From: Bacteroidales bacterium | GTDB taxonomy: Bacteria; Bacteroidota; Bacteroidia; Bacteroidales; JAAYJT01 | Reading direction: 5' to 3' | Assembly (NCBI GenBank): GCA_034370405.1 | Contig: JAXMKY010000080.1 | Span: 1 to 52,567 of the forward strand | DNA: 52,567 nt | Shown here: piece after piece, positions 46,863 through 52,567 of the stretch | How positions within the stretch are numbered: position 1 is the stretch's first letter | Layout: the number at the start of each line of letters is the position of its first letter | Translations under genes and position numbers: made by a program | Notes under the pieces: model-generated | The model's database searches: none | What the model was told of the DNA's origin: nothing | Seen by the model: only the letters and a program-made list of their open reading frames with translations

Positions 46863-47210
46863 TTATAATTTGCTGAGAATTGAGCCAAGTATATTTTTTA
46901 ACTCGGTTGATTCGTTTACGAGGTATCTACATTTTTCTATATCACCTGATTTAAGATTATTAAAAATTCTTAAAAAGTAGTTTGATTCACGCATTTCTTT
47001 CAGGGAAATACCGATTTTAGTTTTAAAGTCAGGTTTTGTAGGTGACCCCTGAGATTCTTCATAATTTGCTCCGCTTGATGTTGAGGCTTTTATGAGTTGT
47101 CTTTTCATATCCATAGTCTCAATTGTATTTTTTACAGTACGCAAATACAAAATTACATCTACCGCAAATCGTAGCAATCTTTCACACAAATCTCTCTTTT
47201 GAGCTTTCAT
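46863..47210 (-). CDS. Four-helix-bundle protein (TIGR02436 / 23S-IVP / Avd-like family)
   Basis: 'DL.ER...FA', 'QLIKASTSSGANYEE', 'DF..KI.ISLKE.RES.YFL', 'ES.EL..IL'; AT-rich. Confidence 0.9.
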   Translation of the reverse strand: MKAQKRDLCERLLRFAVDVILYLRTVKNTIETMDMKRQLIKASTSSGANYEESQGSPTKPDFKTKIGISLKEMRESNYFLRIFNNLKSGDIEKCRYLVNESTELKNILGSILSKL

Positions 47211-49452: not shown

Positions 49453-49917
49453 ATGAACAGTGATTAACGATTTTTGATTTATGATTTATAGTTTATTGTT
49501 TTGACTATTTTTCTGTGCAGTTTCAACACTTTTCACAAAAATAGATATCAACTCATTGCTTTCGTTCAGGGCAAGAATAATTTTATCTTCTGATTTATAG
49601 AGTTTTGTGCGAAATATAATTTTCAAACAGATATTGGTTTCCCTCAATTCTTTCAAAACGATTTTTATTTTGTGGATAAAATCTCTGCGAGATTCTCCGC
49701 TTTGGGCCTCACCATAATTTAATGCAGGAGACGTTCCTGATCGCAATAACTGCCCCGCCAGATGGTTTGACTCTTTTGTATCAAACATCGTTTTACTGAT
49801 TTCAACAATCAATACTGCAAAATTTATTAATCGTTCTTCAAGGTCGTGCTTATTCATACGTTTACTTTGATTCCTTGTTTCTTCTTCGCATATCATAAAT
49901 CGTTAATCATTATTCAT
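49453..49917. repeat. Inverted repeat pair bracketing the second four-helix-bundle gene
   Basis: ATGAACAGTGATTAACGATTTTTGAT (49453-49478) matches the reverse complement of 49892-49917 (ATGAATAATGATTAACGATTTATGAT) at 23/26. Both arms show 7-bp periodicity. Confidence 0.8.
49486..49857 (-). CDS. Four-helix-bundle protein (TIGR02436 family), second copy
   Basis: 'DLEERLINFA', 'QLLRSGTSPALNYGEAQSGES..DFIHK....LKELRET', 'E..ELI.IF'. ATG 49857 is preferred. Confidence 0.92.
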   Translation of the reverse strand: MNKHDLEERLINFAVLIVEISKTMFDTKESNHLAGQLLRSGTSPALNYGEAQSGESRRDFIHKIKIVLKELRETNICLKIIFRTKLYKSEDKIILALNESNELISIFVKSVETAQKNSQNNKL

Positions 49918-50010: not shown

Positions 50011-50466
50011 TTAGTTCTCTCTTAGCACATATTCGTCGTATTCGATCTCGAAGCGCAGCTTGTGTTTCGACTCTTCGATGGCCAGCGACAGGAAAAGCTG
50101 GCGCAGTTCTTCGCTTCCCGATCGTTCGGCCAGGCGGCTGTAAAGCTTGAAGGCTGCTTTTTCGCGTTTCATGGCCAGCACCAGGGCTTGTTCGTAGCTC
50201 ATTTCGGGGGTGGCTTCCGATCGAACCACAAAGTCGGCAATCTTAAGGTCTTGCACTGTGCCCGCATGGGCTTCGAGGATGCCTGTTTCCTTTACTTGCA
50301 TCAGCTTGGCTTTGTGGTCCATCTCTTCGCGTGCAAATTGGGCAAACACCGATTTCATCTCGTGGTTGGCAGCATTTTCGGAAAGAGAGGTATAGAAATC
50401 AACTGCGCTTTGCTCCTGTTCGATGGCAAAGTCGAGTATTTCGTTGACGGTGCTGAATTTATCCAT
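50011..50466 (-). CDS. Rubrerythrin/ferritin-like protein
   Basis: 'ILDFAIEQE..A..FY', 'EE..H', 'AMKRE..A...Y', 'EE.KH' diiron motifs; start at MDKFSTV. Confidence 0.9.
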   Translation of the reverse strand: MDKFSTVNEILDFAIEQEQSAVDFYTSLSENAANHEMKSVFAQFAREEMDHKAKLMQVKETGILEAHAGTVQDLKIADFVVRSEATPEMSYEQALVLAMKREKAAFKLYSRLAERSGSEELRQLFLSLAIEESKHKLRFEIEYDEYVLREN

Positions 50467-50526
50467 AGGCTTGGTTGTATAGAATTGAAGGGTCAAAGGT
50501 AGGGAAAATTTGAGGACGTGAGGGAA

Positions 50527-50575
50527 GTGATGTGGTGATGGAGTGATGGGGTGATGGAAGTGATGGAGTGATGGG
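50527..50575. repeat. Six tandem GTGATG(NN) 8-9-bp repeats
   Basis: GTGATGTG GTGATGGA GTGATGGG GTGATGGAA GTGATGGA GTGATGGG. Confidence 0.85.
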
Positions 50576-50702
50576 ATGATCATTGTTTTGAGCAAGTGTT
50601 AAATATCATAAATGAATATTTTTAGTCCTATGTAGATTTTGCATCATTCTTTTGTATATTTACGGCTTTGGAATTTTCATTGCAATACGAAACAATAAAA
50701 GC

Positions 50703-51866
50703 ATGAAACCCACGGTGGTACTGGAACCCGGAGAGCATCACGGGCAAGAGGTGGTATTTTTGATTTTTCCGAAGGACGAGCAACTCATAGCTGAAGTGAA
50801 AAGGCTGGGGGTAGCGCGCTGGAGTACAACACAGCAAAGGTGGTATATTCATAGAGAGCGATTTGTGTTATCAGATGTGTTCAATGCCTTTCAAAAATTA
50901 GCTTTTGTAGATTACAGTGCGCTGAAAAACGGCAGATCAGTTTCACCTGCCACTGCCACTGCCACTGCCCCTGCGCAACCTTCCATTAACTACAACAAGC
51001 CCAAATTGCCACAATTAAGTGCTGATAAAGCCGCCAGGATTAATGATTTCCGGTACTGGATGCAGCAAAAGCGTTACAGTAAGAATACCGTAAAGACTTA
51101 CACTGATGCCATCAGAACTTTTTTGCGCTATTATGCTCACCGCGAATCTTCGACATTATGCAATGACGATCTTGTGCGGTTCAATACAGATTATATTCTA
51201 GCGAACAAATACTCACCAAGTTACCAGAACCAGGTGATAAATGCTATCAAGCATTTTTTTGCTCAACAGTACCAAACTAAAATGGATATCCAAGGGATTG
51301 AAAGGCCCCGGCGTGGCAGCAAGTTGCCCAAGGTGATTGACAAAGGAGATATACAAGCCATGTTGGCTGGCATTTCAAATTTGAAACACAAAACGGCACT
51401 CGCATTGATTTATGGCTTGGGTTTGCGACGCTCGGAGCTGATCAATATGAAGATCAGGGATATTGATTTTAACAGAAAGGTACTGACCATTTTCAACGGG
51501 AAGGGGCAGAAAGATCGTGTGCTTCCGATAAGTGATAAGCTCATCCGTCTTATTCAGCAGCATCTGGCAACTGCAACTTCTCTTGTATATGTGATTGAAG
51601 GGCAAACCAAGGGACAGCCTTACAGTGCTACAAGCGTTGAAAAGATTTTTGAAAAGTATATGGATAGCGCAAAAAGAAATCATAATTTTACACCACATTG
51701 CCTCAGGCATTCGTATGCAACCCATTTGCTTGAGGCGGGTGTTGATTTAAGATTTATACAGGAGTTGCTAGGACACAAAAGCAGCAAAACGACAGAAATA
51801 TATACCCATGTCAGTATGAAAAACCTAAGCAAAATAAAGAACCCGACCGATGATTTCGATTTGTAA
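50703..51866 (+). CDS. Tyrosine recombinase, integron-integrase-like (SAM-like + catalytic domains) with an extra N-terminal domain
   Basis: Intact catalytic set: R (GLRRSE), K (GKGQKDR), HxxR (HCLRH), H (LLGH), Y (TTEIYTHV). 'YSKNTVKTY' marks the SAM-like domain. Confidence 0.9.
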   Translation: MKPTVVLEPGEHHGQEVVFLIFPKDEQLIAEVKRLGVARWSTTQQRWYIHRERFVLSDVFNAFQKLAFVDYSALKNGRSVSPATATATAPAQPSINYNKPKLPQLSADKAARINDFRYWMQQKRYSKNTVKTYTDAIRTFLRYYAHRESSTLCNDDLVRFNTDYILANKYSPSYQNQVINAIKHFFAQQYQTKMDIQGIERPRRGSKLPKVIDKGDIQAMLAGISNLKHKTALALIYGLGLRRSELINMKIRDIDFNRKVLTIFNGKGQKDRVLPISDKLIRLIQQHLATATSLVYVIEGQTKGQPYSATSVEKIFEKYMDSAKRNHNFTPHCLRHSYATHLLEAGVDLRFIQELLGHKSSKTTEIYTHVSMKNLSKIKNPTDDFDL

Positions 51867-51930
51867 TAAGAAACACCTTAGGGTGTACATAGCATACCAT
51901 ATGCATGTGCTAAGAAGATAAAAGGTGTGG

Positions 51931-51950
51931 ATATAAACAAGTTGCTGCGG
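51931..51950 (+). other. attI-like recombination site (ATATAAACAA-G/TTGCTGCGG)
   Basis: AAAC-AA-GTT core 74 nt after the integrase stop, similar to the attI1 core AAAACAAAGTT. Confidence 0.55.
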
Positions 51951-52319
51951 AATTTTAATCCGCGGCCCGTTCTTTGAAAAAAATTGGAAGGAGTAAAATA
52001 GCTGCTAAGCTACGGGATTTCTGAAGGAAACAGGCTCGGGAATTTTCGTATGAAACGCGAAAAAGTTCACTTTTACCAGCGTGAGTACGCTGAAATTCCC
52101 GGCAAAGTTCTGAGAAATTTCTGACATTATCAAATTTCGCAAAGAACTTTTAGCTTAGCAGCTATTTTGAAGGGTTTGTTTTTTACGGTCAAAATGAAAG
52201 CTGATAGCTCCCCGAACCGCTATCAGGCAATAATTTTGGCCTCAAAGAACGGAGCCTTTGAAGGGGATTAAAACTGTCAGTTTTTTCTAATGACTGACTT
52301 CATGAAAAAACTCCGCACA
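51941..52319. mobile_element. ORF-less, highly structured putative gene cassette
   Basis: The ends are complementary (GTTGCTGCGGA / TCCGCACA[AC]). It contains many nested perfect IRs and has no ORF of 60 aa or more in the track. Confidence 0.6.
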
Positions 52320-52567
52320 ATCGAGTAGGCTGCCCCACCAGCGAAACTGATGGGGAGAGCCTCTCACACCACTGTACGTACGGGTCTCGTATACAGCGGT
52401 TCGTCAGGTATCAGTACTATCGCTCATTACACCAATAGTACCTCTGCCTTTGTTTAGGATAAGGCTGGCAAACTCGAAGTTTGAACCTCCTTATCGAATT
52501 CGAGACAACCCAACGTTCTGCCCTTCACTGGCTTGTGAGACCTCCGCTTTATTCATCGGCTCGTTAC
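52320..52567 (-). ncRNA. Group II intron, class IIC, 3' part (end of DIII, ORF-less DIV, DV, DVI); 5' part outside the window
   Basis: On the minus strand: DIII end GAAGGGCAGAAC; DV ACCGCTGTATACGAGACCCGTACGTACAGTGGT with a CGC triad (52368-52400); DVI GAGAGGCT...AGCCTACTC with a bulged A; terminal AT at 52320-52321. Confidence 0.9.

Follow-up and report, generated by a model that had tools for sequence, protein, structure and literature searches.

A candidate integron platform with a Xer-like tyrosine recombinase at the end of a Bacteroidales contig

Features at the contig end

The window analysed here is the whole of contig JAXMKY010000080.1 (52,567 nt; assembly GCA_034370405.1, a Bacteroidales bacterium), which is contig C80 of what is referred to below as the window genome (G000). 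The features of interest occupy its last 1.9 kb and comprise a gene for a tyrosine recombinase, an attI-like site ending in a GTT triplet, a segment of 378 nt, and the 3′ part of a group II intron on the opposite strand (Table 1). Considered together with related loci in other genomes, they most likely represent the platform of a Bacteroidota-type integron, consisting of an integrase, an attI, a first cassette, and an attC site split by an intron, and the probability of this reading is put at about 0.78.

Table 1. Features in the last 1.9 kb of the window (C numbers denote contigs of the window genome).
Feature	Position	Strand	Basis
Tyrosine recombinase gene, IntI/XerA-like clade, without the IntI additional domain	50703-51866	+	Open reading frame (ORF) list, Pfam, NCBIfam, alignments
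N-terminal domain, amino acids (aa) 1-77, beta-beta-alpha-beta-beta-alpha	50703-50933	+	AlphaFold2 model, ESM Atlas neighbours
attI-like site, ending ...GGATATAAACAA-GTT	51867-51943	+	Paralogous site on C9, homologous loci
GTT triplet, putative crossover, attI/first-cassette junction	51941-51943	+	Homology boundary, Logan contig end
First cassette, 378-nt non-coding segment, multi-copy in the window genome	51941-52319	+	Repeats behind attI-type sites, contig depth
CTCCGCACA, left part of the cassette attC R″ box, cut by the intron	52311-52319	+	Intron-less Logan contigs, C102
3′ part of an ORF-less group II intron, running off the contig end	52320-52567	-	Rfam RF00029; domains V-VI at 52320-52401

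The integrase is 387 aa long from its ATG, in a frame open from 50652, and matches the Pfam families Phage_integrase (6e-40) and Phage_int_SAM_4 (2e-11). Its catalytic set (R242, K267, H332, R335, H358 and Y367) is intact and invariant in both homologue alignments; the original prediction, made from the DNA letters, had described the recombinase as intact. The best NCBIfam model is XerA_Arch (217 bits, cut-off 220). Against TIGR02249, the integron integrase family, the protein scores 192.4 bits in two separate stretches and misses the cut-off of 265, and it is far below the equivalog cut-offs for XerC (179.8 vs 335) and XerD (179.7 vs 330). Its residues 293-309 (17 aa) face residues 186-244 (59 aa) of IntI4 (2a3v), so the IntI-specific additional domain is missing, as had been proposed from the shortness of this region. 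In an alignment of 93 homologues, the distance from KDR to HxLRH is 59 residues in the window integrase, 58-59 in all rows of the Bacteroidota family, and 100-103 in seven IntI rows from Proteobacteria, Verrucomicrobiota, Kiritimatiellota and Gemmatimonadota. The family as a whole is without the IntI insertion of about 41 residues and has in its place the N-terminal domain described below. In a quick tree the seven insert-bearing IntI rows form one clade (support 100), the window row lies in a separate Bacteroidota group, and two XerC/D-like paralogues of the window genome (C145 and C130) belong to a distinct outer clade (support 100). The original prediction had called for a phylogeny against IntI and XerC/D; the quick tree puts the integrase outside the insert-bearing IntI clade and apart from the XerC/D-like paralogues.

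In an AlphaFold2 model of the integrase (mean pLDDT 86.9), the N-terminal domain is predicted with confidence (pLDDT about 95 for residues 1-70) and is joined by a disordered linker to the two usual recombinase domains. IntI and Xer proteins lack this N-terminal domain. Its structural neighbours in the ESM Atlas are all N-termini of Bacteroidota integrases or small stand-alone proteins, and no Pfam family was found for it beyond a weak hint of DUF5710 (E 0.1). A Foldseek search of the PDB with the full model returned integron integrase 2a3v first (E 6e-17) and archaeal XerA next, which favours an integron-type enzyme; the list is dominated by the catalytic core and leaves the N-terminal fold unnamed. 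The domain is present twice in some homologues (L010, L011). The best 120 homologues in a large protein collection are 42-59% identical (the window's own record apart) and most are near full length, and those that have names are labelled 'site-specific integrase', 'tyrosine-type recombinase/integrase' or 'XerD'. A second integrase of the family is encoded in the window genome at C100:7630-8798, within a 605-aa open frame and with its own attI-type site (...TTTACTAGTT).

The GTT triplet lies 74 nt past the integrase stop, within ATAAACAAGTT (51933-51943), exactly where a TAAACAA-GTT motif had been reported. The motif itself is not rare in the window (four matches at one mismatch against 1.76 expected, equalled in 6 of 100 shuffles) and is weak alone; its weight comes from its position behind the integrase, which is kept in homologous loci. 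A paralogous site, C9:19756-19832, lies behind a remnant of an integrase 3′ end and is 85% identical to the first 77 nt past the stop, an identity that breaks off exactly at GTT. The site behind the C100 integrase reads ...GATGATATTTACTAGTT followed by ACCTGC; C145 carries a similar site, as does C114, there together with an integrase remnant. Within the window genome, GTT is the homology boundary in both a pair of attI1 sites and a trio of attI2 sites, and the same position is the left end of separate cassette contigs in the Logan data, at 51940/51941. The site adjoins the integrase gene where cassettes enter, as an attI does, but 3′ of the gene and not 5′.

Fragments of the integrase C-terminus, made up of its last 36-75 aa but of just about 16 aa in one case on C9, occur at C9:19700-19832, C114:289-396 and C24:413-640, and an attI copy stands behind some of them. 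Similar fragments, several per genome, were seen in relatives of the window genome (G004, in four places, G032, G023, G030 and G039). They are candidates for decayed platforms, or for attI-bearing pieces moved as cassettes.

The 378-nt segment starts with GTTGCTGCGGA (51941-51951) and ends with TCCGCACA (52312-52319). The reverse complement of its start is TCCGCAGCAAC, so that the two ends, with AC added to the second, are complementary at 10 of 11 positions with one indel. This pairing, apart from one extra base, had been pointed out in the original prediction; it is weak on its own and is validated by other loci (see below). The segment contains no ORF of at least 60 aa and has no Rfam match. 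It is present behind the GTT of three attI-type sites, on C80, C114 (91 nt at the contig start) and C145 (34 nt at the contig start). The copies on C114 and C145 follow an attI2-type ...TACTAGTT, and each copy begins exactly at GTT. In two groundwater metagenome runs of one study that hold the stretch (X1 and X2), the contig of the cassette is sequenced more deeply than that of the integrase, at 40.7 compared with 30 (X1) and 46.2 compared with about 6 (X2). These runs may include the source sample and so are not independent support; the Logan data consist of contigs only, in which parts without cover are not evidence, and two further runs (X3 and X4) hold small shares only. Contigs from X3, a sediment metagenome of another study, are about 93-97% identical to 51968-52320 (25 differences in 353 nt and 8 in 236 nt), so the cassette occurs beyond one site. 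By eye, an 18-nt perfect inverted repeat (AAAATAGCTGCTAAGCTA at 51995-52012 and TAGCTTAGCAGCTATTTT at 52151-52168) flanks about 140 nt of the cassette and is followed by several small hairpins that have no Rfam match.

Two sets of sequences were used for comparison: 41 genomes, most of them fragmented, made up of the window genome and 40 relatives (G numbers), and 80 loci fetched from GTDB species genomes by integrase likeness (L numbers, which below also denote other sequences such as a metagenome contig). The 378-nt cassette is absent from the 40 relatives, with one weak match of 36 nt only. An invariant sequence behind GTT in related genomes had been named as the outcome that would tell against a cassette, and it was not found: homologous loci carry unrelated sequence after GTT.

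The end of the cassette can be followed past the intron in Logan contigs from X1 and X2, in which the piece 51940/1-52320 continues for 77-78 nt into CTTTGTATATCCGGCAATGCC... and not into the intron. The same continuation is found at C102:63, where the final 21 nt (...TCATGAAAAAACTCCGCACAAC) recur at the end of another cassette and are followed by TTT-GTATATCCGGCAATGCCAGCC...GGCTGTCACTGCGGATATAC-TTTCC-GTTATCGG. The intron-less form reads CTCCGCACAAC-TTT-GTATATCCGG...CCGGATATAC-TTTCC-GTTATCGG (Logan contigs; C102:44-140). As single-stranded DNA, the C102 continuation is predicted to fold into a hairpin with an L box (z -2.3 on either strand). Because the Logan continuation matches the attC of C102, the intron-less cassette of the window appears to end with ...CGCACAAC (CGCACA-AC) and an attC-type hairpin closing in GTT, which is what had been expected past the intron. 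At 51930/51941 and at 52314/52316, further Logan pieces with other flanking sequences join the stretch. On C102, the attC is followed by a cassette (C102:213-4386) that is more than 4 kb long and, by eye, carries an N6-adenine methyltransferase-like gene (NPPY motif), possibly a restriction or defence gene.

Cassette arrays and intron insertions in related loci

Many homologues of the integrase lie within 1-2 kb of a contig end, a mark of repeats downstream. The genes upstream of the integrase do not adjoin its homologues in relatives, and the far side of the neighbouring rubrerythrin gene differs among five genomes of the genus. Motifs of the TATAAAC-AGTT type are found 75-190 nt behind the stop of close homologues. 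Expressed as TATAAAC.AGTT, the motif was found behind only a few of the 80 loci, distant homologues ending otherwise (e.g., ...CCAATTGTT).

The clearest array is on contig C7 of relative G015. The integrase there is a homologue with 38% identity, and behind it on its own strand come ...TATAAGCTAGTT and then AGGTGC. Over the next 13 kb, ORFs in this orientation are set apart by a repeat of about 137 nt that occurs 13 times and has the form ...YTAAC-AG-CCGGTATACGCAATTGCCG...CGGCAACTGCGCATACCGG-CGGAC-GTTR.... The 6-9 letters that follow GTT are complementary, in reverse, to those that precede the AAC of the next site; this holds at all 13 junctions, the one between attI and the first attC among them. 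This fits integron cassettes, since each carries the GTT side of its own attC at its start. Repeated cassette ends, which had been expected downstream of the window, are thus seen in a homologous locus. RNAalifold gives a hairpin of 28 pairs for the G015 repeats, and no Rfam family was found for attC-like repeats. Eight of nine G015 cassette ORFs had no Pfam match, as is usual for integron cassettes.

A covariance model (R1) was built from 12 of the G015 sites and is accordingly narrow. It finds sites in 23 of the 41 genomes, 72 of them in G015 and 6 in the window genome. In seven relatives (G015, G007, G006, G037, G027, G032 and G004), R1 sites share contig and strand with a gene of the integrase family, whole or fragmentary, and lie downstream of it. 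Among the 80 loci, 11 have R1 matches, including Winogradskyella ursingii, other Flavobacteriaceae, Pontibacter, and metagenome-assembled genomes (MAGs) of Bacteroidales. The sites are downstream on the integrase strand in eight of these, and seven of the eight (L057, L058, L064, L065, L067, which is W. ursingii, L114 and L125; not L082) show complementarity between the attI and the first attC, which ties the site behind the integrase gene to the array. The remaining three (L080, L084 and L081) have the divergent layout that is classical for integrons, with R1 sites on the opposite strand upstream of the integrase. These are at L080:85-7212 (Psychroserpens), L084:79-1694 (Flavobacteriaceae) and L081:7653-7792 (a MAG), and L080 and L084 form a clade of their own in the integrase tree. 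A tRNA gene is located about 3 kb upstream of the W. ursingii integrase (L067:6808-6881).

The hairpin structure of the attC sites is conserved. Over 37 sites from many genomes, 85% of alignment cells are paired, compared with 24-37% when partners are slid, an alignment that was fitted to R1 and so favours structure, a bias the slid controls share. Compensatory changes occur in 24 of the 28 pairs, a number reached in none of 500 shuffles, and AAC and GTT are nearly invariant.

The six R1-type attCs of the window genome are on C93, C95, C35 (two), C94 and C66, and the tail of the C93 attC (GTTATAGCCA) complements the lead of the first C35 site. At about 95 nt, the attC of the window cassette, which is of the C102 type, falls in a different size class. 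Some R′ boxes in the window genome are degenerate, with ATT in C35 and C9 and none in C94. The ATT-bearing attCs lie at C9:19833-20130 and C35:2791-2929; on C9 the R″ box reads AAT, so that the pair is kept (AAT/ATT), and the 'cassette' that comes first on C9 measures only about 95 nt, against about 290 nt for its attC.

A canonical IntI was absent from the array-bearing genomes checked: TIGR02249 was over its cut-off in none of five, where all matches skip profile positions 184-238, and in none of seven array-adjacent integrases. This bears on whether the recombinase serves the arrays at all. It might instead serve a small mobile element as its integrase, or be a housekeeping Xer acting at GTT sites, next to arrays served by another enzyme in the manner of clusters of attC sites lacking an integron integrase (CALIN). 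The lack of a conserved neighbourhood, the database names, the best match to XerA_Arch and an imperfect co-occurrence with R1 sites are all in keeping with such an unrelated enzyme. It is nevertheless quite unlikely, given that in eight independent genomes (G015 and the seven loci above) the letters after the integrase-proximal GTT complement the lead of the first attC, that no other IntI-like candidate was found in any of the five array-bearing genomes, and that the Xer-like paralogues on C145 and C130 are separate, well-supported members of another clade.

A group II intron appears to interrupt the attC of the window cassette. The original prediction had placed a class IIC intron at the cassette end on the bottom strand; a group II match (Rfam Intron_gpII, domains V-VI) was found at that position and strand, but the class IIC assignment applies, by sequence comparison, to a related intron and not to the ORF-less copy in the window. 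A search of the 40 relatives found related introns with the same 3′ end (...CTACTCGAT) in 13 of them. A 36-base word from the window end matched one metagenome contig, L050, which carries a complete related intron with a frameshifted reverse transcriptase (RT) gene. RVT_1 and GIIM are the only Pfam domains found in this RT, which most resembles the solved GsI-IIC RT (3.6e-82, vs 9e-28 for LtrA). From the conserved 36-mer to domain V there are about 1480 nt in L050, holding the RT gene, vs about 130 nt in the window, so the window copy is ORF-less. A Logan contig extends the intron 317 nt beyond the window end. The rest of it is absent from the genome assembly, in which no contig shares even its last 15 nt. 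The start of C66 and the end of C94 each carry an intron 5′ part like that of C35, then AC and an attC; either could continue the window, but no link to it was found. Two RT genes of other introns are also encoded in the window genome. In X1, intron pieces have depths of 233-549 vs 30 for the chromosome and show several different 3′-exon flanks ending ...CACA, so the intron family is high-copy in that community.

The complete copies show where these introns insert. On the cassette strand, L050 reads ...CTGGCTATA, intron, ACAGCACCTAC...GTTAGCGG, and the part past the intron matches R1 (31 bits, E 1e-6). On C35, a cassette starting (A)TTGTGCCGC ends with ...GACGGCACA (GGCACA), followed by the intron and then by AC and an R1-confirmed attC; here the intron is a 335-nt ORF-less remnant on the other strand (RF02001, 54 bits; 93.6 bits in L045). 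The bottom-strand targets inside these R1-confirmed attCs are CTGT/T (L050) and ATGT/T (C35). They match the consensus given for IIC-attC introns in passages of PMC7923331 and PMC3001079 (TTGT/T in R″, bottom strand), which supports an insertion of the IIC-attC type. In the window, the intron 3′ exon begins with T and the 5′ exon lies off the contig. For the introns of G007, G034, G004, G009 and G039, DNA likeness is limited to domains V-VI, and no complementary 5′ exon box was found within 3-3.6 kb.

Class IIC introns usually insert behind terminators, and the whole arrangement could in principle be a chance resemblance, in which ordinary intergenic features such as terminators and a repeat resembling a miniature inverted-repeat transposable element line up and the intron has landed behind a terminator. 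The T run after the 3′ exon (TGTGCGGAGTTTTTT), the modest z score of the C102 hairpin and the statistically unremarkable GTT motif would fit. This explanation is very improbable, however, and on sequence grounds appears already contradicted by the position-specific complementarity of 9-11 nt at all 13 G015 junctions, the attI/first-attC complementarity of other loci and the covariation of the attC hairpin across genomes; in addition, the complete introns share an identical insertion geometry inside model-confirmed attCs.

Further upstream in the window, a run of GTGATGG-like heptamer repeats was seen by eye at 50490-50590, just upstream of the rubrerythrin-like gene (50011-50466, - strand). 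A gene for a '23S rRNA intervening sequence protein' (PF05635) lies at 49486-49857 (-), beside a BatA-like gene, and a similar-looking ORF (46863-47210, -) is on the other flank of the BatA-like gene.

Proposed mechanism and alternative explanations

What the comparisons show is the anatomy of the locus with its boundaries, cassettes that obey integron logic, a hairpin whose structure is conserved, array-bearing genomes without a canonical IntI, and one cassette present at several sites. From these we infer that the integrase catalyses recombination, and likewise the strand used, the exact bond cleaved, and present activity of the locus. In the proposed mechanism, the integrase, with its extra N-terminal domain and without the IntI additional domain, would bind the attI 3′ of its gene on the same strand and recombine this double-stranded site with the folded, single-stranded hairpin of an attC, at or within GTT. 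By analogy with integrons, circular cassettes would enter and leave the locus through such attI x attC recombination. The R″ box of the window cassette's attC (CGCACA/AC) would have been split when an intron of the IIC-attC type retro-homed into the hairpin on the bottom strand, and the ORF-less copy would need an RT supplied in trans. Cassettes could be expressed by read-through, since they are co-oriented with the integrase gene, or from promoters of their own.

Several points weigh against this reading. The additional domain of IntI is described in a passage of PMC9668308 (citing Messier and Roy) as necessary for integron recombination, and the window integrase would have to act without it. 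The tree was a quick maximum-likelihood search over 90 of the 93 rows, which leaves the deep forks unresolved, and its rows were picked by likeness to the window integrase family. The window cassette is non-coding and its end complementarity contains an indel of one base. The window ends before any complete attC, so that the attC of its own cassette is seen only through the Logan contigs and C102, and R1 finds no attC in the window, at the starts of C114 and C145, or in C9, even with filters off. The Rfam match to the intron (39 bits, E 2e-5) just misses the gathering score of 40. Among the Logan contigs listed, none crosses the cassette-intron junction, pieces stopping or starting at 52319/52320, so that this junction is known solely from the genome assembly. 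The Logan contigs contained no joints of the excision or circle type and no piece across 51899-51940. R1 sites were found in 14 of 19 relatives with a strong integrase homologue (E <= 1e-50), yet also in 9 of 22 without one. Lastly, the attI-bearing integrase fragments at C9, C114 and C24 indicate that some platforms have decayed.

The last point leads to an alternative in which the kind of system is correctly identified but the window locus is itself a decayed, inactive remnant, and the 378-nt segment spreads otherwise, by homologous recombination or by riding with the intron. Such a remnant could explain the non-coding cassette, the ORF-less intron copy, the degenerate R′ boxes in the attCs of C35, C9 and C94, and the lack of joints among Logan contigs. 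The integrase, however, has kept its frame and all of its catalytic residues, and in two runs the cassette is sequenced more deeply than the integrase contig. Since the copies start exactly at GTT behind three attI-type sites, they point to site-specific insertion and not to homologous spread, and an inactive remnant is considered unlikely.

The preferred reading is an integron-type platform. The locus shares the system-level features of integrons (attC, cassette logic, attI and arrays) and departs from IntI in family score, additional domain and clade. The comparisons point to attC cassette arrays being common in Bacteroidota, beside a different, Xer-like recombinase. With a slight lean in favour, the arrays may belong to an undescribed, phylum-wide class of integrons (Bacteroidales, Flavobacteriales, Cytophagales and others) in which attC sites are recombined without the IntI additional domain, possibly by way of the N-terminal domain.

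Comparison with known systems

The defining mark of integrons is an integrase carrying a unique additional domain, and detection software relies on that domain. Since the recombinase described here lacks that domain, standard integron-finding tools probably miss this system. Surveys report almost no integrons in Bacteroidetes: a passage of the IntegronFinder 2.0 paper records only In0 elements besides one complete integron, in Salinibacter, and another review merely lists Bacteroidetes. In the literature full texts searched, a set without subscription journals and supplements, no description was found of Bacteroidota attC arrays with an integrase lacking the additional domain. If the class is real, tools that require the IntI C-terminal signature greatly undercount Bacteroidota integrons, and the mobile cassettes of marine, sediment and gut-related Bacteroidota form a large pool that has so far escaped notice. 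The class would either have arisen separately from canonical IntI, or the additional domain would be dispensable; the structural rules for recognition of folded attC DNA would be broader than thought, and a single versus a multiple origin of integrons would become directly testable. A native cassette-insertion tool for Bacteroidota may also be at hand.

The closest known systems are integrons, with which the loci share arrays of mostly unannotated small cassette ORFs, attC hairpins with R″ (...AAC), R′ (GTT...), an unpaired spacer and an L box, cassettes that each start with the GTT-side letters of their own attC, an attI adjoining the integrase gene, and introns of the IIC-attC type on the bottom strand. 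The position of the array 3′ of the integrase on the same strand, regarded as unusual in the original prediction, was borne out as a layout but has a precedent: 'typical' Spirochaetota IntIs are described in reverse orientation, with the integrase directed towards the array (passage of PMC9668308). The differences are that the window integrase lacks the IntI additional domain and, in the quick tree, falls outside the insert-bearing IntI clade, that it carries a Bacteroidota-specific N-terminal domain, and that the attCs are long (about 135-140 nt), with complementarity between cassette start and attC lead extending to 9-12 nt.

Group IIC-attC introns (e.g., S.ma.I2) are similarly inserted on the bottom strand, opposite to the cassette orientation, between the cassette body and the attC, with an xTGT/T target in R″, and the RT of the related copy is likewise closest to GsI-IIC, with only RVT_1 and GIIM in Pfam. 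In contrast, the window copy is ORF-less and ends at the contig end, the related RT was placed by likeness and not by phylogeny, and the hosts here are integron-like arrays of Bacteroidota.

XerA, XerC and XerD share with the window integrase the two-domain core of a 'simple' tyrosine recombinase, XerA_Arch as the best model, and a Xer-like size of the region from the beta-hairpin to HxLRH. The window integrase differs in scoring below the XerC and XerD cut-offs in a genome with separate Xer-like paralogues in another clade, in its extra N-terminal domain, and in its location beside an attI and cassette arrays rather than dif. A further group, the 'integron-like' simple tyrosine recombinases (IntI together with recombinases of IS91- and IS3-type elements; Smyshlyaev et al., 10.1101/542381), is described in a passage of that work as close to IntI and, like the window family, includes IntI relatives without the IntI insertion. 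As far as that text goes, these relatives are reported with insertion sequences and not with attC arrays, and the likeness to the window family is one of description only.

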